Assembly (NCBI GenBank): GCA_000934665.2
Contig: JYFJ02003416.1
Coordinates: forward strand, 1-41,988
Direction of reading: 5' to 3'
Origin: Catajapyx aquilonaris
Lineage: Eukaryota
DNA length: 41,988 bases
Positions 4,297 through 39,088 of this stretch are shown here, piece by piece. Within the stretch, counting starts at the first letter, position 1; each line of letters begins with the position of its first letter. A program made the translations under genes and the position numbers. The notes beneath the pieces were generated by a model that had not been told where the DNA came from, did not search any database, and worked only from the letters and a program-made list of their open reading frames with translations.

Positions 4297-4646
4297 TTAA
4301 ATGTCACCTTTGAAGGCCGAGTCTTCTTCTGAGCCTGAAGATTGATTGCCAAGAGTACTACTAGTTTTCACCTGCTTTCTCTTGAGATTCCCGTGAACCG
4401 TCTGAATGTGCAACTGCAGGCTGGGGTTCCTTGTGAAGCGATGGTAGCAAACAGGGCATACAAACTTTGGCAGCACGCCACATTCATATCTCAGGTGACG
4501 TGCAAGTGACTTCTTCAACTGGTAAACTCGACTACACTTTGGGCATCTGAATTCCTGACCTGTGGCCTCTGATAAAGATGCAGTGATTGTCAATGATTCT
4601 GCATGTTGATCAGATTTTGAAACCAGAAGGGGCGAGTTCCAGTATT
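4297..4646 (-). CDS. lola: lola-like alternative terminal exon ZF-1 (CCHC+C2H2)
   Basis: Acceptor ttttgttttgtttcag|AA TAC TGG (phase 1). Encodes ...FRCPKCSRVYQLKKSLARHLRYECGVLPKFVCPVCYHRFTRNPSLQLHIQTVH..., stop TAA at 4297-4299. Confidence 0.88.
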
Positions 4647-5214
4647 CTGAAACAAAACAAAATATGCAACATTAAGATGCTGCTGCCAAACTGCTTACTA
4701 GTACTGGCAATAGAAGACAAATCAAAAGATTAAAAGGCCATGCAATGCATGCAAATGTCTAACACAGAGTTGACACAATGTGCTTGTGTATTTTTGTTGA
4801 GCACCCAAAATAAATTTCCCAATATAAGTAATGTCCAGACAGAGAGTTGGAACATAACGACAATGTTTGGAGGCTTCACTTAGCAGAAAAAAAGGGAGGA
4901 TTAATTGTAAAGCTACCACAACTGGCTATAAAACTACAAAAAATCATACTTGAAAGCAGGCTACCAAAAAGTTGTATTTCTAACACATTCTGACCCATTT
5001 TGCATAGAAGTATTATTTAAAAAAACATTGGCATTAAAAAGCTGCCTGAAGAAGAAAGCAGAAGCAAGAAAAAGTCACCTTGTTTCATACAGCATTATCT
5101 GGGGGGAGGGGGGGGGGGGGGAATCCTACTAAAAAGGATAGCAAGGAAGGTTTGTTGAAATATTACAACACATATACCTGCCTTTCAAGAATTTGCATAC
5201 ATGACTTTGTGTGT

Positions 5215-5220
5215 TTTATT
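5215..5220 (-). terminator. Candidate polyadenylation signal (AATAAA) for exon ZF-2
   Basis: Plus-strand tttatt at 5215-5220 is AATAAA on the minus strand, about 12 nt after the ZF-2 stop and upstream of the ZF-1 acceptor. Confidence 0.4.
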
Positions 5221-5232
5221 ATATTCCATGCC

Positions 5233-5480
5233 TCAAACGACGCCATGAACTTCAGCGTGCTTTCTTAAGTGATGGAAATGCTTAAATTTCTTTCCACACA
5301 CATAGCATTGGAACTTGGGCCCAACACCACACTCGAATCTCTGATGCCTAACCAAGGTGTTTTTGTGCTCATAATTGCGGCCACATTTCTTGCAGATGAA
5401 ACGTGGGCCCGATGGGACAAATATCTGGGACACATCCATTAATTCATCATTCATGTTCACTGGAGATGCACCTTCACATC
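5233..5480 (-). CDS. lola: lola-like alternative terminal exon ZF-2
   Basis: Acceptor tttttttgttttccag|GA TGT (phase 1). Encodes FICKKCGRNYEHKNTLVRHQRFECGVGPKFQCYVCGKKFKHFHHLRKHAEVH. AATAAA follows the stop. Confidence 0.9.
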
Positions 5481-5819
5481 CTGGAAAACAAAAAAAATAT
5501 GAAATGTTCAGATTCTTTTCCTTCATGTCAACACTATCAGGTTCATGGGACATAATTGATGAAGTGTCTCACAGTTAGCATTACATAATCATCATGCTTC
5601 TGATTCCTGGTAAAATAGCTTCAAGTGTTTTTTTCACATCTCAGTTATTCTTACCCTGGAAAGAATGACTACTACTCTGTCATACACCATAGGCAGCTTA
5701 GCATAATACCTAACATAGTTCCTAGATTGCATCCAAAACGCACTGTTTTGAATCCATTCTAGTTTTTTGCTGCTTCTTTTTACCCCATCCTTAATCAACA
5801 CCCAGTGCTACTATAATGT

Positions 5820-5891
5820 TACTAAAAATATTACTGAGATATCTACTGAAATATTGATGAAATATCTACTAAAAATATTAATGAAATATCT
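5820..5891. repeat. Short tandem repeat, ~24-bp unit x3
   Basis: tactaaaaatattactgagatatc / tactgaaatattgatgaaatatc / tactaaaaatattaatgaaatatc. Confidence 0.7.
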
Positions 5892-7114
5892 CCCCTAAGT
5901 AGAACCTGTCTTAACATTGTGGGGAGATATCTTAGTCACCAACAATCTTTTTAAGATAACACAAATACCCTTTTTGGCTTCTACAACCCCATCCAGTACC
6001 TGCTCTGGTGCCATAAGACCATAACAGTCTATATTCCACTCATCAGTAACTAAAACAGCATTATGATTTAGGTGTTTGTATTCACCACTTAGGAAGTACA
6101 GCTCCAAGTAATTGTTATGCTTGCAATCATTTCAGAAAAAAACTGAATTATATTTCCATACTGCCAAAGCAGCTGGAACCTTCATGTCACTGGCTTGGGT
6201 AGGACAGATATTCGCAACACAAAGTTGTCGAAGCATTTGCTACGTGGTGCATGGAATCTCAATAAATGAAACCCTTTTGGTTGCCAACAACTTTTCTCGT
6301 CTCACTTTTATTGATAAATACGACAACCTGCAGTTGCAGCCCCCTACATGGTACAATGCAGGAAAATACTGATGATTTGAAAAGCTCTCCAAGCATCTGC
6401 AACAATATGCAACAATGGGATATCTTTTGATGAGGGGGAGTCTTGCAGCATATTTTATCTTTTTTTTGCATGCAGGACACAACTCACTACAAGGTTATGT
6501 ACTTTTTTTTTGCCATTCTAATGGGGGTTACTTACATAGTAAACCTACACATCTGCTCACAACAGACACCTTCGCTTACGACTGAGTTAAAACATATTTT
6601 CCCCCATTCTTCGAAAAAACAAAGAGAGCAGAGAGTTGTTTTCCTTTTCAATCATGTAACATGAGATCTAACACTACATCTGAGTTTTGTCATGTACTTT
6701 GTGACTAGTTGTTTTCAGAGTTGAGCCCTGAGGCTACAAAAAAGATTAACTCTACAGATTAAGTCTTAATCCACACAAATCAGTCTGCATGTCAAAAATA
6801 TTAACATAACACTAAACAAAACTGAGAAGATGAGGTTAACATAACTTAGGTACTGGTACTTAAATTAAGATTTTAAAAATGTGTTGCAGTATTCTCCACC
6901 ACAACACCAACGAACTTACAAAAAAATATATTGTTAATACTGCTCACACTCGCATGCAAAATGCCTTTTGCAAAAACACAGGAAGTAAGTCTCCCTCACT
7001 TTCACCATTTAATGCTAGGGAGGAAAACCATAACTGGGAAAATGGCAATTGGCTGGGGGAGGGAAGATAATATTTCCTGCACGGTTTTTCTGAATCTGTT
7101 TTTCATGGATTTGT

Positions 7115-7371
7115 TCACTTGAGATGAGTTTTGAGGTGCTCTTTCAAATGGTGGCGGTGCCTGAACTTTCTGCGGCACAGCTCGCACTCGTACTGTGGCC
7201 GTACTCCGCACTCTAATCGGCGGTGCCGCAAGAGGTTAGACTTGTGGGAATAGAGGCGGCCACAGGTGGGGCACGAGTATGGTGGGGCTCCGGTACCCCC
7301 TACCACCAAGCCTTGCTGATGGGGAAGCGCTGAGAAGTGGAGGAGGACTTGATCGGGGATCAGAAGTGGAT
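7115..7371 (-). CDS. lola: lola-like alternative terminal exon ZF-3
   Basis: Acceptor ttcttctctgtcttccag|AT CCA (phase 1). Encodes YSCPTCGRLYSHKSNLLRHRRLECGVRPQYECELCRRKFRHRHHLKEHLKTH. Confidence 0.9.
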
Positions 7372-8283
7372 CTGGAAGACAGAGAAGAATAGATGGGCAA
7401 CAAAGTCCAGTTGCCAACACCCAAAAGCTAACCTCTTTTGTGGTCATACAACGCCTGACACCTATCACAGGAGAAACTACTCACAAACTACTACCGTTTT
7501 GCTCCTGGTGAAACATGTTTTGGGAAGAGAGGTTTTTCATCCTCCATGACAGGCCCCATAGCACACTGTGTCAAGGTCAAGTCATAAGGCAGAGACAAGT
7601 GTTCAAGTCTTCTACTCAGTCTTTATTGATAAATTTCTCTTCTCAGTTCAATCAGCATTATTTTAACTAGCACAATTAGTCTATTACCTACATGTAAATT
7701 TGCATACATTTATGAGTGATAGGTTCATCTTCAGGAGAAGGAAAGAAATACATTTCAATTGTACCTCTGTAAATTGAACTGCAATTACTCACAAAATAGG
7801 CAAAAAAATTACTTGATAATGCTTGCAGTTAAAGAAGGTACTTGCATCGTTATGGCTGTCCTCATGGCATATCTTACACACAGATGTTCAATTCCTTAAG
7901 AGGTAAATCACAAAATATATCAAAATACTGTCATATTTAAAAACAAACAAGGAGTAACTCTTACAACCCACATAATCCATCATTTGTTCAGGAAGCACCT
8001 GTGAGAACCTTCAAACATCAAGTTACTCTTACATTAGTATACTACTCCATTAATATTATCCATAGCACTTTCTCAAGCATGAGCAATGGTAAATATCTGG
8101 TCAGCACCTGATAGATCAAGGAGTTGCGGAGGACAGATCAGTTTTCCTTACTCAAGTTAGTGTGGCAAAAAATCACTACAAATCTAACTCAAGCACCAAG
8201 AAAGCAAATCTTATGCTAAAAATGAACAACACGGAAATTTTCTCCCATGAAATATAACAAAAATCCTCCTTTCATTTTGTAAT

Positions 8284-8630
8284 CTATTTGGGATCATGCT
8301 TTTCGTGCCAGATGAGATGAGTCTTCAGATTGAAATTGTGCGTGAATTTTCGCGGGCAGCGGTCACAGCAGAAGCGCGGCTCCACGCCACACTCGTACCG
8401 CCGGTGCCTCAAGAGTGTCCCTTTGCAGGAGTAGGCCTTGTTGCAGCGGGGGCAGCGATAGATTTGGTCCAGAAGCCCTGTCGAGGAGGGGCACAGGTGG
8501 TGGTGGTGATGGTGGGTAGTGGTTGTGATGATGGTTGTACTTGTGGGGTGATTGGCAAGTAGGGGCAGAGTGGAGCCCAGCACCCCCACCCTCGCCAGGG
8601 CCGCCGACAGCTGCTCGAGGCTGCCCGCCC
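8284..8630 (-). CDS. lola: lola-like alternative terminal exon ZF-4 (poly-Thr/His linker)
   Basis: Acceptor ccctcctgtctcgttgcag|GG GCG (phase 1). Encodes YRCPRCNKAYSCKGTLLRHRRYECGVEPRFCCDRCPRKFTHNFNLKTHLIWH. Confidence 0.9.
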
Positions 8631-9554
8631 CTGCAACGAGACAGGAGGGCAAAGTTCCGCAATCTTTCTCTCTTCAAGAGGGACTCTAGTACTGCACTGC
8701 TTTTCAGCACGCACGATAATCATGAACCCATCCACTAGGTTGTTAGTACGGGGCACATAAGATTTCTAAAATGTGCCGGTGGCAAACACTCATCTAGTCT
8801 TTTACATTTTTATTTCCATTTAGCATACAAAATATATACAGAAAACCAACACCCAAAAACCAAGGCAGCCACTAACACATTGCATATTTCAAATATTTCA
8901 AATTTCACAGAGCTATAAAAACATTACTATAATGTTTTAAAAATATATGCATACTGTGCTAGTTTTATTTCTCAAGGAAGTGGTCGTAGAGGAGCTAGAT
9001 TAATTCTGGTTACAATTTTGCCCAAGGCCATTTGTCCATACCAAAATGATGATGCAATGTGGAGAGAAAACTTCAATTGATATCATTTTGCAATAGTCAT
9101 GAGTAACAAAAAATAGATCATAAGCTATATATACTTCAATGTTAGTTTAATGTAAATCAGCATTGCACCATTATAGAGTGTTGTTAGCAACCAAAATGAC
9201 CTGTCCCATTGACCTAAAATAACAGTCCTTGTACTGCACTTCCACAATAATAACAGAATAGATTTGGGGCTCCCAGTCTCACAGCCTATTATTTAATTTT
9301 GGTCTGTCTTTCATCAGTGTAATAGTTATTCTTGTCTGAATAATTACCTAACATTGCACTCAGCCACTGAAAAATAGCCACAAACAAGGGTCATCCACAG
9401 GCTGATTTCCTATGATTTGGTTGAATATCATGTCAAAGAAGGTGCATTGTAGTCTGAATATGCATTGGTGAAGGCCGTAAGATGTCCATACACATCCAGT
9501 AGTGAGTTAAACCAAGTTGGGGCCAAAAGCCCCCAATGGCTGGCCAGCTAAGTA

Positions 9555-10310
9555 TTAGCATATCCGGAAAGTAAGGTCAGTTATATATTTTAAAAGCAGC
9601 AATGCGTCCCTAAAATTTTTATTTACACATCTGAAATCTACAACTGTCTACTTTTTTTCCAAAATAGTTTCTAAACAAATCGATGCATTTTTCAGTGAGT
9701 TACACAAGATTTTGTGGACCTATGTCATAGAGTCTGCCGCCAGCCATTTCCGCTATCCCTGAACGCTGGATTGCAACTCATCATCGTCAACCTTCTGCTA
9801 TGCAAGCCATTTCTCCCTGTCCATGAACAGGTGGTAATTGCTAGGCTCTAAATCCCGGGTGATCAAACAATTCGCACTGGAATTATTGTGTAGCGGCATG
9901 TTGAGTTCCTGGTGTTTTTCTTGCGCGACAATGCCCGCCTGCCTACTGCCTGTGCTTGCTTACTGGAAGGAACCCTGCCACAACAATTCAAGTGCACATT
10001 GTTCGATCACCCAGGATTTAGATCCTAGCACCTGTCCATGGACAGGAAGAAATGGCTTGCGTAGCAGAAGGTTGACGATGACAAGGAGTTGCAATCCAGC
10101 GTTCAGGAATAGCGGAAATGGCGTGCGGCAGACTCTATGACATACGCCCACAAAATCTTGTGTAACTCAATGAAAAATGCCTCGATTTGTTTGGAAACTA
10201 TTATGAAAAAAAAGTAGACAGTTGTCGATTTCAGATGTGTAAATAAAAATTTTGGGAATACATAGCGGTTTTTAAAATAAATAACGGACCTTACCTTCTG
10301 GATACGCTAA
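9555..10310. mobile_element. Palindromic (foldback) mariner derivative built from two 3' transposase ends
   Basis: ~340-bp inverted arms, TA at 9553-54 and 10311-12. Right arm translates (degenerate) as LFDHP..DLDPS..KKWLA*QKVDDDKELQSSVQE*..YD..EKCLDLFGNYYEK, the mariner C-terminus with a YSPDLAPSD motif remnant. Confidence 0.85.
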
Positions 10311-11480
10311 TACCTGCTCACTGAGCAAACTCGCAGACAAGGTCTGGTAACAGTGTATAAGACACATGAGGATTAACTTTTAATAAAATGCATCCAAATA
10401 ACATTTAATGTTGTAACATTTCACTGCATCATAGGTGTTGATTGCAATGATGTCATTATCAGTATAGTGCAGGGAGTAAAAATTAGAATATAAATTATGA
10501 TCTTGTGACCAGAAATATTTTCATCTGGCTGAACCTTCATGTGATATGTTATACTTGCATTCATGGTAGTAGTTGTTCATGTCACAAAAAGTGATGCGGG
10601 AAAAGTTAATGTCCAAGTCAATAAATTATGAAAGAACACGTACTACCCTTATTAATGTAATGATCAATGCTCAATAAAATTATTCCCATAGGCCTATGTG
10701 TGTGCACATACTTGCAATGATATAGGCATTAAATAATATCTCTCTTTTGGTCCACCCAACGTATTTTAGAGAGAAAGTAACCTATAAAATGCATCACAGT
10801 GTGCAGTGCAAAGGTTAACAATAAAAACAGTGCATGTAAAGTGCAAGTGCTAATGTGTGTGGTTTGTAAAACTAAACGTTGCAGTCACCAGAAACAAAAG
10901 GCCAGGGGTGGAAGAAAAATTTCCCAGCTCTGTTGGCTCTGACCTGTAAACTTCTGCTTAGTGTTTCATCCCCTCGTCTACCAGACCTCATCTGGCACTT
11001 AGCATGCTGGCTGTTGTGGCTTTTGTCCTTGTTTTTGCTTGTAACTTTAAAAAGGCATGAGCTTGGACACCTATGGCTCTCACCAACGTGTTTTCGGCCT
11101 GCAATGCACTTCTTACGTAATTTTCATCCAAACTGGAAATCACCCTGTCCCTTGCAAGAGCGAAAATTCACATTCACTATTCTGAAAAACTAAAAAAAAT
11201 GGGTGTACACAGTTACTATTGACAAATCAGCAACACTTTAAAAAACTGTGTCTGCAATGTACACCAGAAGTATTATGCTTCTAATTTAGAAAGGTGTGCT
11301 TTCCGTGCAATTATACCATGTAATATGCCTGAAAAAGAGTTCATGTTAATGGCTGGATTCCCCCCCCCCCCCCCCCNCCCCAACCACCCAAAACCACACT
11401 ACCTTCCCTTCCCTTGGTCCATGTTGTGTGATCAGCAACAAAAACACTAGCTTTGAGAAATAAACTCGTGAAAACGACGC

Positions 11481-11836
11481 TCATGTAGTGGGTGGCATTT
11501 GGTGGTGACAAGTAGACAAGTGTCTCTGCAGGCTGTACTTGTAATGAAAAGCGTGACCGCACAAATGGCAAGTGTACTGTGGTGTCTTCCCGCACTCATA
11601 CTTCTGATGTCGATATAGACTTTGCTGCTGTTGGTAAAGCCGTCCACACTGGCAGGCAAAGCTTTGCTGCTGCATATTGGCCACCATGTTGGTGAACAGG
11701 TTGGGATCTTGGCTAACAATGCTCGAGTGGGTGGCGATGGGCATGGTGGAGGCATGATGGCCATGGGCCGCTGCTACCAGGAAGGAGTTGGTGGTGTCTA
11801 GGAGCTTGGTTCCCAGGTTCAAGGATGCTAAGGACC
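11481..11836 (-). CDS. lola: lola-like alternative terminal exon ZF-5 (CxC first finger)
   Basis: Acceptor after a ~70-nt pyrimidine tract, ...ctcccttgcag|GG TCC (phase 1). Encodes FACQCGRLYQQQQSLYRHQKYECGKTPQYTCHLCGHAFHYKYSLQRHLSTCH. Confidence 0.88.
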
Positions 11837-13399
11837 CTGCAAGGGAGAAAAATAAAGAGAAAAGAGAAAAGCGAGAAAGAGAAGAGAGAGACAGAGAGAG
11901 AAAAAAAATTAGGAGAGTAAGTCCCCAGCAAGGATCAAGGTGAAGAAGGAGTTGGTCATTGGGCCAGGTGGTGTCAGGGTCTAACAAAATTTAACCTATG
12001 AATCATTTGGTCCTATTTCTTTTTGCCAGTGTTCCAAAATTTCTCTTGGTAATTCTTACTATTTGATACCATTTGAAATATTTAGTGACCCTAGTGTAGC
12101 TTTGTAAATTGTTCCTTGCTTTTGACATGTTTAGTATATGTTGAAGTAATGTCAACTTTGTAGCAATTTCCTGCATTTAATGTGATCTGAGTTGACCAAA
12201 CCAGACTTGATCTGTTTTAAATATTTTAGATTTCTGAAGCTGAACTCTCTACAATGATTTTTAAAAGCAACACAGCAGTCTTCACATAATGATAATCTGC
12301 CTCACAGGACTTGATGAAGGTGAACGATACAAACACCCAAGGATATTCTACCTGTACACCATCATGTAGTCATTATTTAGTCATGTAACTTTTCAAGATA
12401 ATCTAGTTGCCATCCCCTATAGTGTCTGCCGTAAAGTAGGTGACTAAATCAACTGAGTAAGGGCTGGTTGTATTCAAGCAAGTAAAAAAGCGCCTAACTA
12501 GCAGTGAGGTAATCCACAAGTTAGCAAAAACTCTAATTATTTTGCATCTCAAACTGCCACAGAAGGCACTAGGAACTTGACAGAATTTTAATTTGACTCT
12601 TTATGACAATAGTACGTAATGGCCAATTTTTTGGGTTGTGTATTGTTCAATGACTGATTTTTAAAAAAAATGGCTTAACAATGTGGCAACACACCAAATG
12701 GGGCATCATGCTGGCATGCATTACTTTACTATGAAAATTATTGTTCGTAAACAATATGGGACTCAAATAATAATTGGCCATCCCCAACAACTGTCACAAA
12801 AATTCAAGATAAAATTCTCCCACATTCCTAGCCATTCCTAGTGCAAAAAAAAGCAAATTCTGAACTTTCAAGCCCAGGTTTTCACTACTCAGAGAACAGA
12901 ATGCTATTTAAAAACTCAGTTTCACTTTTTCATCTCATATAATTAGGAACAACTTCCAACAGAAATTATCGTGGTACATGGCAAAATCAATCTCAGGAGG
13001 GATCCCTTGCAATATTGCCATTATTCGCTTTAAAATCGTCACAGGAGACTCCAGTAACTCAAATAATTTTCTATCATTTCTAGCAATGTTAAATAAAGCC
13101 AGATCTTTCAAGCTGTATATTGTTCCCTAAAGGTAATATTTATCAAAACAGACAATTTTGCAACACGAGTTACATAAGGTACATAAGGTAGTATGTTACA
13201 TAAGTTTTCTTACATAGGGCAAAACAATAGATTACCATGATTGTGTACATAATGTCATTAATCCAGTTTCAGTGGGCATGTGGGAACTCTGAAATCAGTC
13301 GTCTGCCATTGCCTGAATTTTTTTAAATGAAATGAATGAAGGTTCCTGGCATCCCCTGTGGTCATTGACTAATCAGTAGCTATGCTGACATACAGTATA

Positions 13400-13827
13400 C
13401 ACGGTGAAGGGATTCTCGTGCCCAATCACCAGGTAGACTGATAGTACTCGCAAAACTAATATAGGGATGTGCAATTATGTAGTTAATGCGTACAGCGCCT
13501 TAGAGTGTAGAGTGTCAGATGGTAGGATATGAGGTAAACAATGACCAAGTGCACAGGTGTCACACCCGGATTCTTACTCCGACGGGATTTGATCACCTAG
13601 TGCACACGGGGGGTGTATTACGGGACCAAGGCTGGATTATTTGGAGGCCCTCGAGCTGACTTTTGCTTCTTTGAAACTGGAGGAACAGATGTGACATCAC
13701 AAAACTTCGAAGGCTCCCAACACTTTAACTATGCAATGGCGTCCAAAACTAATTGCACCTTCCTATATTCGTTTTGCAAGTACTATCAATCTACCTGGCG
13801 ATTAGGTGCGAGAATCAATTCACCGTG
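13400..13827. mobile_element. Tc1/mariner-type MITE with ~100-bp imperfect TIRs
   Basis: ta|cacggtgaagggattctcgtgcccaatcaccaggtagactgatagtact ... agtactatcaatctacctggcgattaggtgcgagaatcaattcaccgtg|ta. Confidence 0.8.
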
Positions 13828-19800: not shown

Positions 19801-20900
19801 GACGTGAGCATAGTGAGCTGGGCACATATCGTGGCTTTGCCAATCTGCATCTTATCACGGCATTGGGGAGCCCACCTTATGGCTTTGGAATATTGCTTAT
19901 GTGCTTGTTCAGGAATGTCCAGTCAATGTCCTGAATGTTCAGTGAACATCAAGTGAATGTCTTGACATTGGACCTATGTACTACCAGGTAACAAGTTAAA
20001 TTGATTAATTGATAATCAGGGCATGTACATTTATTAAAATTCAACATTTAAGTATTTGAATGCCAAGAAATGGGAAGTGAACATTCAGTGAACATTCAGA
20101 AGGCAATGGCAGTGTACAGAAATTATGTTCACTGAACATTCACTAGTTATTGGAGCTCATCCTGAGTTAAGGAATTTTAATACATCTTAGCAAGTTAAAT
20201 TTTGCACTTTTCCCTTTCATCCAATGTCTTACCTCTACTGAACTTATATTTGGAAAAAGTAAAATCAGGGGAAAAAAAATCTTATTCAATACATATCGCT
20301 CAATGTAAAATTGTGAACAATGTTGTGTTTCATTAACTTCTCAATGCCCAACACAAGTCCAACTCTCATTCTTGATTAAGCTTTTCATGATGTCAGAAAT
20401 CCAGAAAATTCTCAAAAATTTTGCAGTTAGAGAGGAGGGCGGGGGAGGGGGGAAGAGAGAAAATGGAGAGCTTATTTCATAGAACTGCAGCTACACCAAA
20501 ACATGCAGCAGGAGGTATGGTGTTTTAAGAAACTAATTCAGTGTGCATTATCCTCTCACATAATTGTAATCCTTAAAGTCATTTATAATTTTCCATGAAC
20601 TATTGTTGTATGACTATGTTGTGAATTTTAAAATTAGTGTCAATTGGGAGCAATTTGTTCAGCCATTCACTAGTAGATTATATATTTGGCTCCTAAAGGT
20701 GACAGAAAATACCACTCACAAAAATGATTGGAAATTTTGGGAGCATGACCCATGTATACAACTTGGCCTACGCAACATAATACTGAACATACTTAGGGAA
20801 AGTAATAGATTGGGAAAGATGGATTGCATCACACCAGTCACAACTCCCCTGCTTTCCCCAACAATTTTAAAGCAGCCATTAAAACAATAGCATAAATTAA

Positions 20901-21445
20901 TCACAGTGGTTCTGGAATGTGGGGCAACTCTGAATGGTGCAGCTTGATATGCTCAAGCAGCCTGAACTTGTACTTGGTGCGCCGCTCACAGAAGGGGCAC
21001 TGGAATTTGGGCTCCACCCCGCACTCGAAGTGAATGTGGCGGTTCAGGCTGCTCCGGCTCATGTATGGACGGCTGCACTTGGGGCATGACAGGCGCGCTT
21101 CTGACATCACAAGTGCACCTCCCAAGCCTGCCCCTGGGCTAGCCTTGGGAAGTGGCACTCCCCCCCACATTTGAAGCATGCCAACGCTGCCCTCCCTCTC
21201 CTGCAACACGACCTGGGGCTCCACCATGGCTGTTCTTTGGTGGTGGTAGTGGTGGTGGCTGCCATTCGGGGGTGGGGTGGTAGTAGCGGGTAGTTGTGCT
21301 TGTGATGGTGGTGGGGGGGCTGCGGTGGTGGTGGTAGTGGTGGTGGTAGTGGTGCCACCTCCCAGGGCGAGCAAAGCTGTCTGGCAGCGGAAGGAGGAGG
21401 CGAAAAGTACCTGCAGCTGCTTAGAAGGAGACTGGGGACTTGCCT
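20901..21445 (-). CDS. lola: lola-like alternative terminal exon ZF-6 (poly-T/P/H low-complexity N-terminal part)
   Basis: Acceptor cttctcccttctactttccag|AG GCA (phase 1), open in frame into LSCPKCSRPYMSRSSLNRHIHFECGVEPKFQCPFCERRTKYKFRLLEHIKLHH. Confidence 0.87.
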
Positions 21446-22550
21446 CTGGAAAGTAGAAGGGAGAAGCGCAAGTTTTATTACTCTTTTGGCTTTGGGGCGG
21501 GAGGTGCAGGGTGTTAATAAGGTGATGGTGTGGGGCGTGTCCAAACCAAGGTGATAGAAAAGAGAAAGAGTGACAGAGAGAGCAGGGTTAAGGTACAGGA
21601 TGGCTGAATCTGGCAACTTCTAAGCAGCAGAGGTGCTTTTCGTCCTTTTTTTCTTTGCACTCACATATAACAACCTCCTTCAGACAGACATTGCTACCTT
21701 ACAAGCCTACTCATGCTTTTAAAAAAAGGAATATATATATATCTAGCCCAGCACCACATGCAAATGAGAAATAATCATAGCAAAAAGAAGCAAAGGATCA
21801 TCAAAACAACGTCCTGAGACATGGTGCAATGAATTTTCCAGCATCTTGACACAACTCCCACATTTAGCCTGCCACCTCTTTTCTTTCCCCACCTAGCCAG
21901 TGCCACAGTAGTGCAAAACCCCTACTGCTGCAACAATACTAGTGCCACAATGGGATGGTCAAAACTGTCAAAAATCCTCAGTTATCCACTGATCAGTAGT
22001 GTGGTAACAATTCTGTGCTCAAAAATGTTTCATTTTCAGAATATGAGCCTGAAGACTTTTGATAGTTAAGTAAGAAGGGCCCCTTACCAGAATTGAGGGG
22101 TGTGGTGGAAAAAGGTGTTGACCCACAAAAGTGTAATTTTTCAGGAGATTGTATTGAAGTTGCATTCTCTTCACAAATCATAGGGAATGCAAGTTTTGAT
22201 CTAGTCCGTGTTGTCGCATCGTGCATGATACGTGGACTTGTAGTTTGCCGTGTATTTTTTATAGTTGCTAGGTGTTTAGGTCAAAAATGACAAAAATGAG
22301 GGTTGTCACCTTTTTCCACCACGCCCCTCAATTAACTTTTGGCTTGGATGGAGGTTGGAATGCAAAAATGTGGGAAAAAGTGAACCTTCCAACCTTTGCA
22401 GTCAGGTGCCCCCAAACCAGGCAGGGTGTTACAGAAATCCCCTTAAACACCCGAATTGCTAAATTTTTGGCAGGAGGGAGGAATTTTAAAAAAGAAAGAG
22501 AAGAAACTCACATGTATGATGCACGTGTGTTAATTAAGAAGAAAAAAAAA

Positions 22551-22981
22551 CTACTTTTGATGCGTTCTCATGTGCAGGATGAGGTTGTGCTTGTGCTTAG
22601 ACTTTTTGTGGCAGATGGGGCACTCAAACTTGGGCTCCACCCCACACTCGAACTTCAAGTGTCGGCTGAGACTGTGCGCCCGGGCATAGGTGTTCCCACA
22701 TTTGCTACAGGAGAAGATGGGTGAGTTGGCACCCCCCTGGTCTCCACCTCCACCACTTCCAACACTTGGCCTGCCCCCTGCGGCCACAGCCTCGCTAAGG
22801 GCACGCCGCTTCAGTACATGAAGGTCGAGCCCACTCAGCTCAGGGGCCAGCGAAAGGGCAGACATTACGTCAAACCTGCTCCCGGGGCTCGCTAGCAGCC
22901 TGGCAAACGATTCCGTGGCATGAAACAGTCCCGTGGTTTGCCCCGCATGCATCCCCGTAACGCCGCGAGTCCCAACCGACT
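22551..22981 (-). CDS. lola: lola-like alternative terminal exon ZF-7
   Basis: Acceptor ttctccattctcattttcag|AG TCG (phase 1). Encodes FSCSKCGNTYARAHSLSRHLKFECGVEPKFECPICHKKSKHKHNLILHMRTHQK, which from recall resembles a conserved insect lola isoform. Confidence 0.92.
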
Positions 22982-23964
22982 CTGAAAATGAGAATGGAGA
23001 AAAGGGACTGTTAGGGGGGTGGCAAATCTGTTTTCGCATTGACTTATTTCTTTTAATCCCTCTCCTGCTCTCTACTTGTACATGTCAATTGCTCCCCACA
23101 CTCAATATTGTTAATTTGGTAGAACATTAATAAGCACAACAACCATGGGCACACATGAGAACTCTTTTTATAAGTCCATGTGCATCTAAGTTTCTCATTC
23201 TTCCTTCCTCCCCCTATCCAGAGGATAATTCAGGTTGTCAGATTAATAATAATACAGTACTACTTGCCTCTGCAATGGAAAGGAGTGGCAGATGCCCTGG
23301 ATCTACATTTGTGACCTAACGATCAGAACTCCTCACATCTTAGTGGTCTATGAAGCAGTTGTGGGAAACTTATGCGGGTGAGAGAGATTCATGAGCAATA
23401 AACTGTGTACAAAGTATTCCAGTTTTATTTGTCCCACGTCAACTTCATCCAGTCAGTAAAGGCTACAACAATCTAGTTTTGGTCTTTGTGACATATTTTT
23501 TCCCCAAAACTATGAGACATCATTACTGTACATTCCTAGTACATCTATTCTATACCACCAACACAAACAAAATCAACAATCTCAGATAATGTCATCCTTA
23601 TGCAACTTAAACATGGTCCACCTCTACATCTTCAGCTGGAAGTGACTAGACACATCTTTCCCTACTGCCTCAAAAACTTCCTCTCAATATTATCAATTTT
23701 GTAAACACAGCTCAGGTGACAAACTCCAAGACTGTGTCCTCATGGCATGATAAGTTAAATGAGAATAATTTATACCTCAATCACTTTCTCCGGATAAAAT
23801 AATTTGTAAACATCTTCAATAAAAAAGAAGCAAAATAAAATTATCACAAAGCACACTACACTGTCACCTTTCACAAAGTCCTTCCCCCCACGCCATACCA
23901 CCAGGAATAAAGTACATTCAAAAATATGTGTACTGCACTTCAATCTGTGCCTTTCCTAATTTGG

Positions 23965-24236
23965 TCACGTTTTCATCCCATGCTTGAGATTAATATGCAG
24001 CCTAAGCTGATCAGATCGTTTGAATTTCCCCCCACAAAAGAAGCACACAAACTGCCGCTCCACCCCACATTCGAACCTCATGTGGCGCTTCAGAGTGCTG
24101 ACCACTTTGTACCTTCTTCCACACTGGGGGCACACATAACTATCACCAACAATTTGGGTGGTTCCCGTAGCGGCCGACTGATCCAACTGACTCCCTCCCA
24201 ATGATCTAATGTCAATCTCTTGGGGGGCTGTCAGCT
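23965..24236 (-). CDS. lola: lola-like alternative terminal exon ZF-8
   Basis: Acceptor ctcttgtctctttgcag|AG CTG (phase 1). Encodes YVCPQCGRRYKVVSTLKRHMRFECGVERQFVCFFCGGKFKRSDQLRLHINLKH. Confidence 0.9.
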
Positions 24237-27200
24237 CTGCAAAGAGACAAGAGGGTCCCCTGAGTGTTTCTTGTTATCTCTCTTGCTCTCCCCGATCCAC
24301 TGCTTAGTTTTTTAACACAGTAAGTAGCGCAGTCAACACAAATTAGTGAGATGTTAATAGTTTATTTTCTAAGTTTCACAAAGTTACAAAATGATAAATC
24401 AAGTTCTACATCTTCCCAAAAATTCTCTCATCTAATTACCTTGTGACGTGAAAAAAAAAATCCTCATAAAATTGTGAATCAATCTAGAAGAACCTACCTG
24501 AATTTTCAGGTCATTACAATAATTCATAAATGCAAATCTCCGAATTCAGGGGGCAAAAAAAGCTCCTGAGATGCGTTTGAAGAACAGTACAATTTTATAA
24601 TATACATCAACTTCTTAATCATTCTGCAAAATCTACTAAAAATGCTATGTCCGAGTACTTGGAATTCAAACGAAGCATTGCATACTAGAACTCAAGTCCA
24701 CTTTTAACTCCTCAAGAGTCAAAGAGCATGTAGAATTGAAGACTTGACAGGTCAACCTCAGGGATGTCTTCCAGAATACTGGCATTAAATATTCACATTA
24801 ATTTTATATTAATGTAGTTTCAGTTAGAGTGGAGTGCCTTTTAGCTGCAAAATAATAAAGAAACAAATCTGACATTTTACAAATTTGAAGTGGAGGCAAG
24901 GAAGAGCCTCTCCTCTAAACCAGATTTATCTGAAGGTCCAACTGACATCATTACCAATCACATGATTGTTGGCAATATTTTACAAGATTAATATTCAGAG
25001 AGAGAACAGGTGTCATATGATCAAATGTGCCAAAAAAAACAACATCTGCACTGTCTACAGCATGGCTCATTAACTCCCTGCCTGACCCAGTTATTAGACT
25101 CTGTACTTGGTGCTTTACTAAGCATAAATATTACAAATTGTGGGTTTCATTAGTTAAATATGAAATTATGATCATTCAAGCTTTTATAATTGTATGAGTG
25201 ACAGAAGCACACTTCTAGCCTGCTTGCCTCTGAGCATGGACACTACAGTCCAGATAAAAATATTGGAAATGCAGGAGGGTGGGAGGGAGAGGGGTATAGC
25301 AGGGAAGGGTGGTATCAATATGAATTTTCTAAGAATTTCAGTATATATTTTGGTGTTTTGTAATAAAGGTATACTAACTTGTCACCAATTAATTGTAGTT
25401 TTTCACTCAAGAAACACATTACTACTGTGTTACATAAGCAGATGAGGAGTCAGAACTTTATCGAAAAGTCTTCTCAGAAACAAATGTGCTGCCAATACAA
25501 TGTCATAATTCATAACTGCTCCACTCCGTACCCTTCAAGTTATACTAATCTCTTCTCAAATTTACAACTTTGCAGGAATGGTCATAACTTTTCAAACTAG
25601 GCACACCCAGAACACATGACCAATCAACAATTTTACACTCATGGCCACAGAGAAGCATATTAATACAGAAACATCAGCTGTTTCACAGAAAGGTTTGAAA
25701 AATAACCCTATTGTATCTTATGAATATCTGAAAACGCAATTTCTCAAGTCAAGCCAATCTTTTCCCTGCCTCTGACTATCTCAAAATGTCTTTTTGGAGA
25801 GAAAAAATGGCATGCATTAAATTCAATTTTTCAAGTTAGACAGATCTGACTTATTATGCTTCAGTTACATCAATTAATATTGACTGTGAGAAGGCAACAC
25901 ATCTAGGTTTTCTCTGGTTCTGAACACGTACTTTTACCAACATTTCTCATTACCATTGGACATGTTTCTTAGGATTGGTTTTAATTCCATAATTTTTATT
26001 AGAGGATGCTCACAAATACAATTAAAAAGTGAAATTCATTCTTTTTCCAGCAAATATTTGAGTTTTTAAATTGTGGTCTGCAAGTGGAAAAGTTTGAATT
26101 TTTTCATATTAACATGGCCATAAGATCTTTGACTTTCCATAATTATGTCAGTTTATGTAGCACTAGCATATGATTCACAATTTTTAAAGCAGTTTATTGT
26201 TCACCAATTCTGAAGTTTAAGAAAATTATTTGTCTGTTTGATTGGGAAACTCTTAACCACTCCTGGTCCCTGGTTGCGGAAAATTGACGATGGCATGCTA
26301 TTAGTTACGTATGGTAATATGACCAATGTCTCCCATTTTATATAGCACTGTGCGATTATAAATTCACTGTCGTTGGTTAAATGCCAGTGGCAGTTAACAA
26401 TGCTTATGCTATCAGTGGAAATTTCAAAGAAAAATGGTGGGAGTTTTGCCCTTCCGCTAAGTCATTGCTAGAGGCATGCTTCTGCAGTGAAGCTTCTGCC
26501 ATAAGCATTTTCATGCTGACATGTAGCACTGTTGTGAACTTTAGACATAAGAATTTAAAATCCATCGCAAATTGGAAAATATTTTCACAATATTTTAAGT
26601 ACTTTCACTGCTACCTGATGTCTAGCCCGAGTTGATACTTGGCATATCTCACACCCTGGCACTCATTTTTCATAAAAAATCACTCACACCCTCCCTAAAC
26701 TTGAGCTCACCCTGTATTCTCAATTGACACATTGTAAATGAGTACTCTCACATTAAGGCAAATATTCAACTTGTAACCTATCACACAACAAACAGTTTCA
26801 GAAATGTCATGTCTAAAGATGAAAGACATGTGGATAGCTACCTCGTATCTGTTAACTCCAGTTGGTGTGGACGTGATGACTTTCTTTCAACTTTAACAGC
26901 TACTGATTTGATGTGCTGCACTGCTTAGTGTTAAATACAAGAAGAATGCCATTTTTCACATCCCCTCAATCCTTGCTGCACCAGTTCATACCATAGTCAA
27001 TGATGCTAACATCCCAATATCGTCACTAAAAGTTCAACCTACCCAGTTCCTGCCATCCATAAATCAAACAAAAAACATGCCAGAGATGGAAACAACCCCA
27101 CTTTGTAGATATAAATATATTATTTGAGCCCTACCATAACAAAGGACTCGTTTATGTAACAAAGTGTACCCCAGCTACAATAATTTGGTAACCACAGAGA

Positions 27201-27595
27201 ATATCATCTTGACATACGTGTGAGAGCCACACACTTGGGGCTAATCACATGACAAAAATTTACAGAAAATCTTGGAGAGGTATTCCCAATGTGTAACCTG
27301 ACAAAAAAATATGAGATTTTCCTTGTAATATCTGTTATTACAACTGGCCCTTACTGTATCTTAGAAATGTTTTTAGAGAATCACTTAATGCTTCAGAGCA
27401 AGAATGTTAATAACCAAATTTCAATCTAAAATTTTATAATAAAACTTATGGCCCAGCATTTAATTTGACAATTACAATAAAACTAGAATTTTATAAATAT
27501 TCTATGTTAATGAAAAGTCACAGATTTATTATGTGCTTAGCAATCTCTCTTCTTAAATAAATTCACGTTTACTTTTCTTTTTATATCAAATCGTA

Positions 27596-28563
27596 CACTA
27601 CCCTGCATTAATGGCTTTGCACAGACATTGCCACCTGGCAGACATAAGTTCCGGCAGCTGCGTCCAAAATACTGGGGACAGCTCAAGACTGCTCCCGAGA
27701 CTGCTCAAGACATCGCGGTGGATTCAAACGATTGCTACAAAGATGGATCATAGATATATCATATGTATCTATAGGATGGATTATAAAACCATTGTGATTC
27801 CTCTCAATGCACTGAAGTTGTGAATCTGTTTATTACACCAACCACGATAATGCTTATTAGTAATATTATTGCCTCTTGTTCGTGTGTTTGGGATGGCCAG
27901 GTGGATTGTTCCTGGTCATTGCTGGTAACCCCATCTTGGGAATATGCCGTGAGTGTAACGAATGAATGAAAGAATGAATGAATGAATGAATGGTCTCTTG
28001 TTACTAAATGTATGGCTGTATAGGGGACTTTTGGGAGTGCACGTAAACAGCATCACTCTTCTCTTATCATTTCACTGTTAAATTCAGGAGTTTTAATACA
28101 CTGTAGTAAAACAACGCAAGTCATATAGGGTAGTGCAAAAAGATTGGGCATAGGCGACAACTGTCATTCGAGAGACTCCCGTATGACTCTGACTAATGAT
28201 TGGCAATGGATAACATTTCTTGTCAAGCCCAGCAGATCCTACCCCTTCCTTGTAGATAACTTCTGAATTATAAAGTGAAATGATGAGCGAAGAGTGATGC
28301 TGTTTACACGCACTCCAAAAAGTCCCCCATGAAATAAGAATACACGTGGTCCATGACTCACTGTCAGTGTAATCACACAACCTCAGTGCATTGATAGGAA
28401 TCACAATGGCCTTATGATCCATCCCAGATATATCAATGATCCATCGTTGTAGCAAGATTTTGAATCCACCGCGATATCTTGAACTGTCTCAGTATTTTGG
28501 ACGCAGCCGCAGCTGCTTATTTCCGCAAGATGGCGATGTCTGTCCATAGCCATTAATGCAGTG
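27596..28563. mobile_element. Long palindromic TA-flanked DNA transposon derivative with a secondary insertion in the left arm
   Basis: Outer arms 27603-27822 and about 28370-28561 are inverted (ctgcattaatggc...gccattaatgcag). Inner arms about 28020-28100 and 28252-28331 are also inverted. About 27825-27991 has no partner and ends in (GAAT)n. Confidence 0.75.
27960..27991 (+). repeat. (GAAT)n microsatellite, likely a retroposon tail
   Basis: gaatgaatgaaagaatgaatgaatgaatgaat. Confidence 0.65.
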
Positions 28564-30777
28564 TACTGTACAAGATTATCCTGACATGATGAACAGTGAT
28601 ATAGGAGTAAATTTCAGAATTATATCCCTTAATACTAATTAAAGGGGTATATTACTTTGTTTTTTTTGTCTATGTTGAGAGGGACCAAGAAAAACCTGCT
28701 GTTATAGCTGACTGATAATGAACAAAATCACACCTAATGTCCCTGCCTTGGGTTGGTCTGCAAGACTTTGGTAGGCTGGGTTACAGCCAATAAATCATTT
28801 TCTCGCTATGGACTGTGGAGTCATCGCATTCCAACAGGTGCACTGGGAAATGGATTCTCTTCAGCATATTTTTTTCTTTCTTTCTTTCCTACATAATCAG
28901 TTGTTCAAGGTACCCACACCAACAGCAGTGCCATGCGGTGACCTCTGACCCTGGATGCGTCCTTTGACTGGAAAAACTCCACGGGCCCCACCAAAGACTG
29001 AGAGACAATAATACCCTGTGACAAGCCTGATGCAAGGCCAACTCCATCAACAATGTATGCATGGCCCACCTGAGATCCTAGCCTAAGAGTGATGCTCAGT
29101 ACCTCACTGGGCATTTCCCCCTCAATCTTGAGCCCACAATTTTCATTTTTCAAACTACAAAGAGCATGGATTTCCTGCCATGTACTGAGCACCAGCCACA
29201 TTTGTCCTTTACAACAAGCATCCCAGAATGGAGCAAGACTGCAGCAAGTTTGCTGCCATTGTTCCTGTGTAGGGTGTGGTAACAAAATTCCATATCCACA
29301 TTACATGGTAACATTTACCATGCACCCACCCTCCCACAGCAGCACCAGATGTAGCAATGGCGGACTCTGAACTGATGAGTAGAGAATTGGTCATAGTAAG
29401 AAAATGCAAATTCTAATATTTATTCTAGTGAACAGGGATTTGTTATTTGTATCATTGAACAGCTGCTTCCTCTACTGACGTGTCCACTTTGAGACCTGCA
29501 TGATTTTTAAAATTTCTCTTAAAAAAGCTACTTGTGAGCACTAACAAGACCCAAGTTACGTGGGGGCAGTGAACCCAGGGTATGGATCATAAGTTGCTAG
29601 GTGTTCTCAGGTAAGCCAACTGGAGCAAACAATGCCAAATTAATCATTATTTTGGGTGTGCCCATGTGCACTACAAGTACATTTCAACCTAGTGTTGCAT
29701 AACCAAAAACCTGCAGAGATTGCAAGTGCCACGAAAAAATTATTCCTGCATATGAGTGTTTAGAAAAAGATTTAAAATTACACTGTTATATTGAGTCTTG
29801 TGTGTTGAAAGGCAGTTCAAATGTACGACTGTGTATCATTGCATAGCTCCTGTAATCTTCCTGTATTTTACCAGAAGTACATCCAAATGATTATTTACAT
29901 GCACCCCAAAATAATCACAAAAGTTTTCCAGGTTCCTGAACTAACTGAGGTGGCAGAGAAGTTAAGAATGACTTATCTCACAATGTGAATCATCTGCACT
30001 AGTGGTTTATGAGGTTGCTCCAAGGTAAGCCAAGAACAGATCGAAAGCTCAATTCCTTAGTGCAGTTGTATGGGCAAATTACAATTCCCTTAGGACAGCA
30101 AGTGGCCATCATAATCTATCACCCTTCTCTTATGTGGCCCACCATTAAAAAACAATGGTTTAAAAAAACATTGTCCTTCACACCATTCAATATTAAGACA
30201 GCCTGTGCATTCAATGTCATTCCTGAAGTAACAACTCTTTCACTCAGCAATGTGATTTTCCAAACCCCCTAATGCAACATTTGAACTCAGCTGTCAGTGA
30301 CTCTTTGAATTAGAGTGGATGCCAGAGCTAGCTAGACATGTGAGGCCCAATATAAAGAGTTGGCAGTTATAATATTACACATTGTAATTTATGTGAATAA
30401 AATGTAAAAGCTAACAATAAACATGGTCCAAGAGCTCATAAGTGTACTGTCAAAATAAATATTCAACACAAAAGGTATACATATTCCTCTTCACTTTATT
30501 TATATTTAAAAACAGTTTTCAAAATGACTTGAGCATGCAATTATTCATTATGTGATATTCACACATATATAGTTTGCCTCGTAGGACTTTCTCAAATTCA
30601 CAAAGTCATTGCAAACGAAACATCTTCAAAATAAGTTACAATGAAATCGTTCATTAACACATGAGCATAGTAGGTACAGCAAAGATTGCTCAGGAGGTGA
30701 TCCAACATGCCCTTGTCTAAGTAGTCTTTTTTTGTTGGCAAAACATGATCAACCATCAGTAGGCCTACTGAGGATGT

Positions 30778-31058
30778 TCACCACATTTTCCCCTTGGGAA
30801 GCACATGTCCCAAAGTCCTGCAATGTCTCTTAAGTGAGTCCATTCGAGTGAAACCAGACCCACACTCATTACAGAGGTACTGTGCTTGCACCCCACACTC
30901 CAGGGCTAAATGCCTCCGCAGCCCACTTTTGAATTTGTACCTCCTACTGCAACGGTGACAGACCCAACTGGGCACTGACTCAAGCGAATGACTATGCAAG
31001 TCCCGGCTCAAATCTGGCGTGGGAAGAGGATCAGCGAATAGGTCCGGCGACCATGCAT
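30778..31058 (-). CDS. lola: lola-like alternative terminal exon ZF-9
   Basis: Acceptor cccctccctgccgttgcag|AT GCA (phase 1), with a second in-frame acceptor giving exon start 31013. Encodes WVCHRCSRRYKFKSGLRRHLALECGVQAQYLCNECGSGFTRMDSLKRHCRTLGH. Confidence 0.87.
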
Positions 31059-31144
31059 CTGCAACGGCAGGGAGGGGATGTGCGTTTAATTATGCCATTG
31101 AACCATTACATGAGGGAACCAACCAAATACCCCCCATCTTTCCT

Positions 31145-31401
31145 TCAATGCCTGGTGACCCAGTGGCTTTTGAGCTGGGCCTTGTGCCTGAACTTAAGTC
31201 CACACTGCCCACACTGGAACTTAGGCTCCACTCCGCACTCAAACTTAACATGCCTCCAGAGTGAGCGTGCCACGCAGTAACCCTTCCCGCATTTCTGGCA
31301 CACATGGGGCCGCTCCTCAGGTGATGAATACTCTACCATCGGCCTACTATCTGTTACGTACGCTCCACTAAATGTGGGTGGGGCCACTACATAGACGCAG
31401 C
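31145..31401 (-). CDS. lola: lola-like alternative terminal exon ZF-10
   Basis: Acceptor ttcccttccctccttttccag|GC TGC (phase 1). Encodes HVCQKCGKGYCVARSLWRHVKFECGVEPKFQCGQCGLKFRHKAQLKSHWVTRH. Confidence 0.9.
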
Positions 31402-31669
31402 CTGGAAAAGGAGGGAAGGGAAAGGTAGAGCAGAGGACAGGGTGGTGGGCAATGCATGGAAAGAAAAGAGGAAACCTTGGTAAGAGCCTAATAGCAAGTT
31501 GCAACTAGAACACTTTGAAATAACTCTTTGGAATAATTTCTTGTAATACTGGCACTCAGATACATTTCCCATCTCAGCCCCCTACCCTTTGTAATTCCCA
31601 CCATCAAGCATCCTGTCAGCCTTTGTTAGCAGTAATGTCAAGTGTGTGCATGTGTGGTCCATTATATCT

Positions 31670-31977
31670 TTACAGCATGGAAAAGTCTCCCAGGAAGTGA
31701 AGTTTCTGTTTCTGGTGGCACCGTAGCACATCTCTTCGACTGAATCTTTTCGAGCAAACAGGGCAACAGAACTGCTTCTCCACACCACACTCGTAACGCA
31801 AGTGCCGGTCTAAGGTGTAATTCACAGAATACTTTCGATTGCACCGAGGGCATGATAGCTTCCCATCTTCACCGGGAACGAAGACCAGACTGCCACCACC
31901 CCCACCACTACCCATTTCTTCTGAAGCCTCAGAAGAACTATGCTGCTGAGTCCATGATCGGGGCAAAATCCATGGCT
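31670..31977 (-). CDS. lola: lola-like alternative terminal exon ZF-11
   Basis: Acceptor tttactcttgttgcag|AG CCA (phase 1). Encodes LSCPRCNRKYSVNYTLDRHLRYECGVEKQFCCPVCSKRFSRRDVLRCHQKQKLH. Confidence 0.9.
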
Positions 31978-32733
31978 CTGCAACAAGAGTAAATCTATTA
32001 CTCTGAAGAATATGTAGAATCCAATCATAGCTATCTACGGCGTGATAAGATTGTCTCTTGTCTCTCTTGTGGCAATACTTGTCAATTCAGTTATGCTCAA
32101 GAAAATTAACAACAAACAAATGAAATGATAACTATTCATTTAACCCAATAAAGTAAGGCTAAATCTCATCAAATAGTTTAAAATTTGTTCAATGCAGGGC
32201 CATTATTTAAAATTTTTGATGTATTCTATTCATTTCTGATTTCCAAGTCTCAAACTCTTACCTCAATCCTCAAAACTCTCCTGGAGGAATACAACATCCC
32301 ATATCTTCTCTGACGGTAAAGTGAAGCAATTTGCCGATGATGCTCCTATATTCCTGCTCTCACAAGCTGTCAAATCTAACTCCTAATATGTTGCATAATC
32401 AAAAACATGGGAGTACAGAGGCATGTCCAATAAACCTGGTTATGAAAGCCCCATAGTGCCTCTTTTACCATACACACGATCCATCAACAATAACCGAGTG
32501 CTCCCATATACCCGAAGAACAGATATGAGTGGGTGTAGATACTGCCTGCTCCGCCACATCCGAGTGCAAATCAAGAGATAATTCATTTTAAGGAAATGCG
32601 TACCAGAACTTGGAAGTATGAGCTACACTTTCCCTTCCCAAAGCACAATGCAAGTTATTTGCTACTATGTTAATTTTGTCTACTCAACTTCTTCCCACGC
32701 CCCATCTCATCTCCCTCCCTCCCCCACACTCAT

Positions 32734-32760
32734 TCTCTCTCTCTCTCACACACACACACA
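32734..32760. repeat. Compound (CT)n(CA)n microsatellite
   Basis: tctctctctctctcacacacacacaca. Confidence 0.8.

Positions 32761-39037: not shown

Positions 39038-39088
<51 letters not shown>

Follow-up and report, generated by a model that had tools for sequence, protein, structure and literature searches.

An array of eleven zinc-finger exons, probably the variable 3' part of an arthropod lola-type BTB gene

The stretch of DNA described here, 41,988 nt of contig JYFJ02003416.1 (Catajapyx aquilonaris, assembly GCA_000934665.2; below, the window), carries on its minus strand eleven exons, each ending in a pair of zinc fingers and a stop codon. The acceptors of these exons all have the same phase, and three of the exons are kin to isoforms of longitudinals lacking (lola). 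The region is very probably the variable 3' part of an arthropod transcription-factor gene of the lola type, in which a BTB domain is combined with zinc fingers.

The exon array

A standard-code listing of the whole window gave eleven stop-to-stop frames on the minus strand, at the places where the earlier note, made from the letters of the sequence, had put them. The units stand in tandem on one strand across about 27.7 kb, with gaps of 9 kb and 6.5 kb, and their reading frames differ. Exon 1 is the last in transcription order and exon 11 the first, and exon coordinates run from acceptor to stop. Each line below gives the exon, its stop-to-stop frame, the acceptor (a slash marks the exon start), the phase and acceptor score as described in the next section, and the helix residues of the first and second finger.

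Exon 1, 4297..4646, minus strand; frame 4297-4671; acceptor tttcag/AA at 4646, phase 1, top score 19; helix LKSR / RPSL; 31-aa tail, Pfam zf-C2H2 4.7e-9
Exon 2, 5233..5480, minus strand; frame 5233-5568; acceptor ttccag/GA at 5480, phase 1, top score 21; helix HNTR / HHHK
Exon 3, 7115..7371, minus strand; frame 7115-7480; acceptor ttccag/AT at 7371, phase 1, top score 21; helix HSNR / HHHE
Exon 4, 8284..8630, minus strand; frame 8284-8673; acceptor ttgcag/GG at 8630, phase 1, top score 20; helix CGTR / HFNT; linker rich in Thr and His
Exon 5, 11481..11836, minus strand; frame 11481-11990; acceptor ttgcag/GG at 11836, phase 1, top score 22; helix QQSR / YYSR
Exon 6, 20901..21445, minus strand; frame 20901-21587; acceptor ttccag/AG at 21445, phase 1, top score 22; helix SSSR / YFRE; longest linker of the array, with Thr, Pro and His runs
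Exon 7, 22551..22981, minus strand; frame 22551-23084; acceptor tttcag/AG at 22981, phase 1, top score 22; helix RHSR / HHNL
Exon 8, 23965..24236, minus strand; frame 23965-24273; acceptor ttgcag/AG at 24236, phase 1, top score 18; helix VSTR / RDQL; Pfam zf-C2H2 9.5e-11
Exon 9, 30778..31058, minus strand; frame 30778-31089; acceptor ttgcag/AT at 31058, phase 1, score 19 (tie with 31013); helix FSGR / RDSR; most divergent pair of the array
Exon 10, 31145..31401, minus strand; frame 31145-31504; acceptor ttccag/GC at 31401, phase 1, top score 24, which ties for the maximum of the strand; helix VRSR / HAQS; stop immediately after the last His
Exon 11, 31670..31977, minus strand; frame 31670-32086; acceptor ttgcag/AG at 31977, phase 1, score 16, rank 2; helix VYTR / RDVC

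Each frame has two fingers and then a stop, which lies 0-31 residues past finger 2 in all eleven units. As the earlier note had claimed, the frames end in a CCHC finger followed by a C2H2 finger. The pair reads C-x2-C-x12-H-x4-C and then, 6-8 residues on, C-x2-C-x12-H-x3-5-H, exactly so in ten of the frames, while in frame 11481-11990 (exon 5) the first finger has C-x1-C rather than C-x2-C. With the junction H-x3-E-C-G included, the lola-type pair is likewise exact in ten units and has C-x1-C in one; the use of this pattern as lola-defining was drawn from BTB-bearing relatives and not from a curated model. Pfam found zf-C2H2 in all eleven exons, above the cut-off in seven.

When a loose finger pattern was run over the 1098 six-frame fragments of at least 25 aa, paired fingers were confined to these eleven frames, and the plus strand had no such pairs. 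With a profile made from the eleven pairs, these scored 72-91 bits and every other fragment of the same set less than 7 bits. Because nothing scores between 7 and 72 bits, the window holds exactly eleven pairs, all on the minus strand.

The recognition helices were said in the earlier note to carry different residues, and this is true of all eleven pairs: positions -1, 2, 3 and 6 vary across the array in both fingers, the only constant residue being the R at position 6 of the first finger. Pairwise identity between the eleven finger pairs is 31-54%. Taken together with the differences in all helices, this means that the copies are old and diverged, and are not recent duplicates or pseudogenes.

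The low-complexity runs of Thr, His and Pro within the exon 4 and exon 6 linkers are coding, and coincide with tandem repeats of period 19 and period 3 (8496-8534 and 21238-21354, respectively).

Splice acceptors, reading phase and start codons

All eleven proposed acceptors consist of a pyrimidine tract and CAG, and the exon start lies 2 nt ahead of the first full codon, i.e. in phase 1, in every case; the earlier note had this right throughout. The sites were ranked among all 173 AG sites that lie between the upstream stop and the fingers of the eleven frames, with a home-made score (not a trained splice model) composed of the pyrimidine count at -23 to -4, the bases at -3 and +1, and a deduction when an AG lies upstream. 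The proposed acceptor was top-ranked in ten of the eleven frames, once by a tie, as in exon 9 the sites 31058 and 31013 score equally and both are in phase 1. A competing phase-0 site in exon 6, at 21380, scored 21 compared to 22 for 21445. The probability that the best sites would fall in phase 1 in at least ten of eleven frames by chance is about 1e-3 when the frames' own AG phase fractions are used, and 1.3e-4 when each phase is given one third. Among the 2552 AGs of the whole minus strand, the proposed acceptors account for 6 of the 11 strongest acceptor-like sites (score at least 21).

The first two bases of exons 1 to 11 are AA, GA, AT, GG, GG, AG, AG, AG, AT, GC and AG, respectively. 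The last base of a common upstream exon cannot be T, because with T the junction codon would become TAA, TGA or TAG in 7 of 11 cases according to our count, or in 6 according to the dinucleotides just listed. No shared motif beyond the pyrimidine tract was seen in the 150 nt upstream of the eleven acceptors, where the best 7-mer occurred in 4 of 11 sequences; in the controls the mean was 3.5 and the maximum 6.

Alternative exons that do not contain fingers were also considered. Such exons find no support in the strong acceptor-like minus-strand sites at 36130, 19441, 5098, 5045 and 23269, as the phase-1 frames that follow these sites are only 3-54 codons long and contain no domain. The 8 nt that follow the acceptor of exon 6 at 21445, AGGCAAGT, also follow the site at 23269 (score 20, 9 codons open in phase 1). 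This copy of AGGCAAGT could be a decayed exon start or due to chance.

The earlier note had described the frames as having no reliable ATG. This stands for four of them (exons 1, 4, 8 and 9), which have no in-frame ATG ahead of the fingers, whereas the other seven have at least one. These seven could be taken to mean that the array is a set of eleven independent small zinc-finger genes or retained fragments, the acceptor-like sites being introns of 5' untranslated regions (UTRs) or chance occurrences, and it is true that units of this kind are annotated in public records as stand-alone proteins of 79-191 aa. We consider it very improbable, since the four frames without an ATG would remain unexplained, separate genes would have no reason to keep their best acceptors in the same phase in ten of eleven frames, and the orthologs of three of the exons are the C-terminal ends of BTB proteins (see below). 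Furthermore, no partner domain is known for a lone two-finger peptide.

Relatives of individual exons

The comparison of single exons was made with a sample of 270-271 fetched proteins, which had been chosen with exons 7, 3 and 5 as queries. Exon 7 (query 22554-22979) gave 67 matches to longer proteins, of which 25 carry the BTB domain PF00651. Most of the named BTB-bearing matches are called 'longitudinals lacking', and they include six rows of lola from Drosophila species. The fingers of exon 7 are 75-84% identical to those of Drosophila lola (83% in D. erecta and D. rhopaloa and 84% in D. busckii, all rows with PF00651 and the lola name) and 85% identical to those of a lola isoform with PF00651 from the hemipteran Homalodisca. 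Across the BTB-bearing lola isoforms, those of Rhodnius, Apis, Cloeon and others included, the identity is 75-85%. Judged by its sequence, exon 7 is orthologous to a lola exon that is widely conserved among insects.

Exon 3 (query 7118-7369) gave four matches, namely the BTB-containing lola isoform X4 of Cloeon dipterum (60%) and three small proteins labelled 'hypothetical', from Blattella, Timema and Ladona. The fingers of exon 2 are also 60% identical to Cloeon isoform X4 (P0120). With the finger end of X4, exons 2 and 3 thus each share about 60% identity, but with each other only 48%, and they may be co-orthologs derived from an old duplication.

The Cloeon proteins connect these exons with each other. 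Isoforms X3 (P0055) and X4 (P0120) have an identical prefix of 294 aa and then divergent ends, and the end of X3 is 73% identical to exon 7 of the window. As the prefix is shared, the mayfly has the counterparts of these exons as alternative ends of a single BTB gene. Over 116 aa, the BTB region of X3 and that of D. erecta lola are 54% identical.

The CCHC plus C2H2 type of pair is present in all 26 BTB-bearing relatives examined. In 25 of them there is exactly one pair, which ends 1-23 residues from the C-terminus. The single exception, P0002 ('unnamed protein product'), has two pairs and is a probable fused gene model.

For exon 4 the best sampled match (57%) is a multi-pair protein of an ostracod, P0123. 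Within the fetched arthropod proteins, which were selected by similarity to exon 5, the variant first finger of that exon (C-x1-C spacing, with the linker E-C-G-K) was found at 24 sites, in 15 proteins; because the variant recurs, we read this finger as a conserved subclass and not as decay. Among the best 150 matches listed for exon 5, most were proteins with 3-31 matched stretches and at most 47% identity, and single-pair orthologs would rank lower than these. With exons 9 and 11 the nearest clusters of the ESM Atlas are named 'longitudinals lacking ...-like', both with a score of 0.98, but their recognition values (2181 and 2131, respectively) are below the mark of 2300 and the two are leads only.

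Two wider searches returned general zinc-finger proteins. A profile of all eleven exons, run against a large protein set, was dominated by unrelated multi-finger proteins (ZNF333, RREB1 and others) and gave no orthologs of single exons. A profile search of the PDB gave only generic tandem C2H2 proteins, with no lola finger structure among the best 60 matches.

The fingers of exons 7 and 3 deviate at positions where the insect orthologs agree, and when the printed sequences were compared by eye, those of Blattella, Timema, Ladona and Cloeon looked much closer to one another than to those of the window. This divergence suggests a source lineage outside or at the base of the sampled insects. In Blattella and Timema a further pair is fused upstream of the exon 3 ortholog; the closest window exon to that pair is exon 1 (53% and 35%, respectively), not the neighbouring exon 4.

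Annotation of such exons in other arthropods

The statement of the earlier note that annotation mishandles exons of this type is confirmed by the records of other arthropods. The exon 3 orthologs of Blattella, Timema and Ladona are stand-alone 'hypothetical' proteins of 171-191 aa with one or two pairs, and the Atlas contains clusters of 79-108-aa proteins named lola-like. Multi-pair models, apparently fused, are found in planthoppers, a lacewing, a gall wasp, a stick insect and an ostracod, and are either unnamed or called 'zinc finger protein 425-like', '208-like' or '567-like'.

Proteins with 2-7 such pairs do exist among the fetched sequences, some of them with NCBI names, and 65 of the 271 hold at least two. 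The eleven units could accordingly be thought of as internal exons of one long multi-finger gene, as the '425-like' and '208-like' models would have it. All eleven frames, however, stop soon after finger 2, the phase-1 acceptors have no matching in-frame exit, and the BTB-bearing relatives have, with the one exception mentioned, a single pair at the extreme C-terminus. We find such a long gene extremely improbable. A classical tandem poly-zinc-finger gene was rejected as well, as it would have many fingers in a continuous frame and here every frame has two fingers and then a stop.

The region upstream of the array

The part of the window upstream of exon 11 is presumed to be the intron that follows the last common exon. 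It is rich in repeats, among them the inverted repeats at 35171-35915 and 39193-39382, and contains the remnant of a transposon; further intronic inverted repeats lie elsewhere in the window:

32087..41988, minus strand, presumed intron after the last common exon, with repeats and a transposon remnant
35191-35550, plus strand, DUF4817 helix-turn-helix (Pfam E-value 4e-7), transposon remnant in the presumed intron
35171-35915, hairpin-like inverted repeat with arms of 153, 94 and 66 nt, 82-87% complementary, overlapping the DUF4817 frame
9552-10313, inverted repeat, foldback-like or like a miniature inverted-repeat transposable element (MITE), arms of 237 nt, 89%
27593-28571, inverted repeats of the same kind, several arm pairs of 64-82 nt
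39193-39382, inverted repeat of the same kind, arms of 64 nt, 94%

When the 138 other frames of the window with at least 67 aa were searched with Pfam, no BTB domain was found and the single family detected was DUF4817. Tblastn of the 67 lola-like relatives, 25 of them BTB-bearing, against the window matched only the eleven finger exons. An Rfam scan of the window gave no RNA families.

Some other features of the sequence were observed. A dispersed repeat of 73 nt occurs at 1129-1201 and 41486-41558, 40 kb apart and 92% complementary, and the frames at the two places encode a similar peptide. A perfect (ATT)n microsatellite of 16.7 copies lies at 39039-39088. The sole N of the window, at 11377, adjoins a G-run some 100 nt past the stop of exon 5 and is probably an artefact of assembly or base calling.

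Gene identity and expected mode of expression

Exons of uniform phase that end in lola-type pairs, together with the kinship of exons 7, 2 and 3 to lola isoforms, argue for the variable 3' part of a lola-type BTB gene. We expect that beyond position 41988 there is one common 5' part, which carries a BTB domain of the Tramtrack type and ends in a phase-1 donor. It would be spliced, in cis or partly in trans, to any one of at least eleven mutually exclusive terminal exons, each composed of a phase-1 CAG acceptor, a poorly conserved linker, the CCHC plus C2H2 pair and a stop. The outcome would be at least eleven proteins that share an oligomerisation domain and differ in the residues that contact DNA. 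Since the contact positions -1, 2, 3 and 6 vary in every pair, different target sequences would be expected for them.

The orthology of the array with lola, which the earlier note had proposed for the whole, is supported for part of it: exons 7 (75-85%), 2 and 3 (about 60%) are kin to lola isoforms, but the other eight can be assigned at the level of the family only. The same architecture could belong to another BTB gene of the Tramtrack group, either a fruitless-like gene or a lineage-specific lola paralog, which would not be a one-to-one ortholog of Drosophila lola. The common exons, which would distinguish between these, are not seen in the window, and the deviation of the window fingers where insect matches agree, noted by eye above, suggests a distant lineage. 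In addition, the automatic names of the exon 7 matches include 'jim lovell', 'glass-like' and 'krueppel-like', and a cluster named fruitless appears in the Atlas at rank 14-15 with a score of 0.96. According to PMC8858584, the locus of two 'fruitless-like' cDNAs of Penaeus monodon has been annotated with several isoforms of lola. Because a decapod locus annotated as lola has in this way been described as fruitless-like, the gene name is provisional until the common exons are known. On the other hand, the closest Drosophila matches of exon 7 are lola, with no Drosophila fruitless rows among the matches; on this ground, in an alignment test made with exon 7 only, fruitless itself was rejected. 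Ranks 1-2 of the Atlas are clusters named lola (for exons 9 and 11, as leads only), and the orthologs of exons 2/3 and of exon 7 belong to one lola-named gene of Cloeon. Another BTB gene thus seems unlikely.

Several observations do not fit easily with a lola-type gene and weigh against it. The central link is unobserved, as neither a BTB domain nor a common exon is present in the window, which includes about 10 kb upstream of exon 11. The best sampled matches of the other eight exons (45-57%) are no better than the paralog background of 31-54% between the window pairs, although these matches are weak evidence either way because the sample was chosen with exons 7, 3 and 5. A motif, P-C-D-L-R-L, which occurs near the start of the variable part in three relatives of exon 7, is missing from the linker of exon 7; it is also absent from all six-frame fragments of the window, and there is therefore no sign of an extra upstream variable exon. 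The ranking of the acceptors was made with the home-made score, and in exon 11 it placed a phase-0 site at 32002 (score 17) ahead of 31977 (score 16). As seven of the eleven frames hold an in-frame ATG, sequence alone leaves room for independent translation.

The last point of this kind concerns the packing of exons 11, 10 and 9, which lie within 1.3 kb on the minus strand (30778-31977), with spacers of 269 nt and 87 nt from stop to next acceptor, the latter between the stop of exon 10 and the acceptor of exon 9. The 269-nt spacer ahead of exon 10 contains no AATAAA or ATTAAA, and one such poly(A) hexamer is found 54 nt past the stop of exon 10. With no hexamer after exon 11 and a spacer of only 87 nt, the three exons cannot all own private 3' UTRs. 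If they are terminal exons, their 3' UTRs must overlap downstream exons or use unusual signals. In the literature passages used here such a nested arrangement of terminal exons was not met, and no search was made for it.

It is tempting to go further and to suppose that the source lineage lies outside the sampled insects with most of its finger pairs lineage-specific, that the diversification of lola-type 3' exons was already large and turned over independently before or outside the insect radiation, and that exons 11, 10 and 9 share their 3' end processing. We regard this combined picture as speculative and rather doubtful.

With a lola-type gene, an oligomerising transcription factor could obtain at least eleven DNA-binding ends, all of them different, from one locus. 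The principle is textbook knowledge for Drosophila lola, and the result is useful for annotation and evolution, not surprising. Exact exon starts, phase and stops are given here for a class of genes that automatic annotation tends to break up or fuse, and the coordinates allow a correct gene model to be built in the source genome once the BTB exons have been found. For comparative work, the array provides a probably non-insect or early-branching data point on the age of individual lola ends.

Comparison with known systems

Fly and mosquito lola are said to have been compared by Goeke in 2003. The alternative ends of mod(mdg4), another BTB gene, are all joined by trans-splicing. In 10.1101/132027 and PMC11426971, Drosophila lola is described as having 32 exons and 20 protein isoforms, 17 of which have unique C-terminal fingers from alternative 3' exons, as using both cis and trans splicing, and as having some isoforms conserved in Anopheles. 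PMC11426971 ranks LOLA with the oldest BTB proteins of the Tramtrack type and reports orthologs from the most basal arthropod clades examined. The window resembles Drosophila lola in having a one-strand array of alternative 3' exons, each supplying a unique finger pair behind a constant part (presumed in the case of the window), and in the position of the CCHC plus C2H2 pair at the extreme C-terminus. The differences are that there are 11 finger exons in this window compared to 17 finger isoforms in the fly, that no constant BTB part is present in the window and the exons are spread over 27.7 kb with the two large gaps, and that no fly counterpart has been demonstrated for most of the linkers or for eight of the finger pairs.

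In the Cloeon dipterum gene ('longitudinals lacking protein, isoforms A/B/D/L-like', X3/X4) a BTB prefix is likewise followed by ends orthologous to exon 7 and to exons 2/3. Two window exons (2 and 3), however, match the single end of X4. The comparison with Cloeon covered proteins only.

A constant BTB part with alternative 3' exons is shared by mod(mdg4), in which one of about 30 such exons diversifies the C-terminal domain (PMC4667647 and PMC11426971). The mod(mdg4) ends are FLYWCH domains, some of them encoded on the opposite strand (PMC4667647), whereas those of the window are C2H2 pairs on one strand. As Pfam gave zf-C2H2 and no FLYWCH in the eleven exons, and all units lie on the minus strand, mod(mdg4) was rejected as a candidate.

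Fruitless and the decapod fruitless-like genes also combine a constant BTB part with mutually exclusive exons that carry zinc-finger pairs. In Penaeus monodon such exons distinguish the cDNAs Pmfru-1 and Pmfru-2, whose locus is annotated as lola isoforms (PMC8858584). Two cDNAs are reported there compared to eleven ends here, and the best named matches of the array described here are lola.

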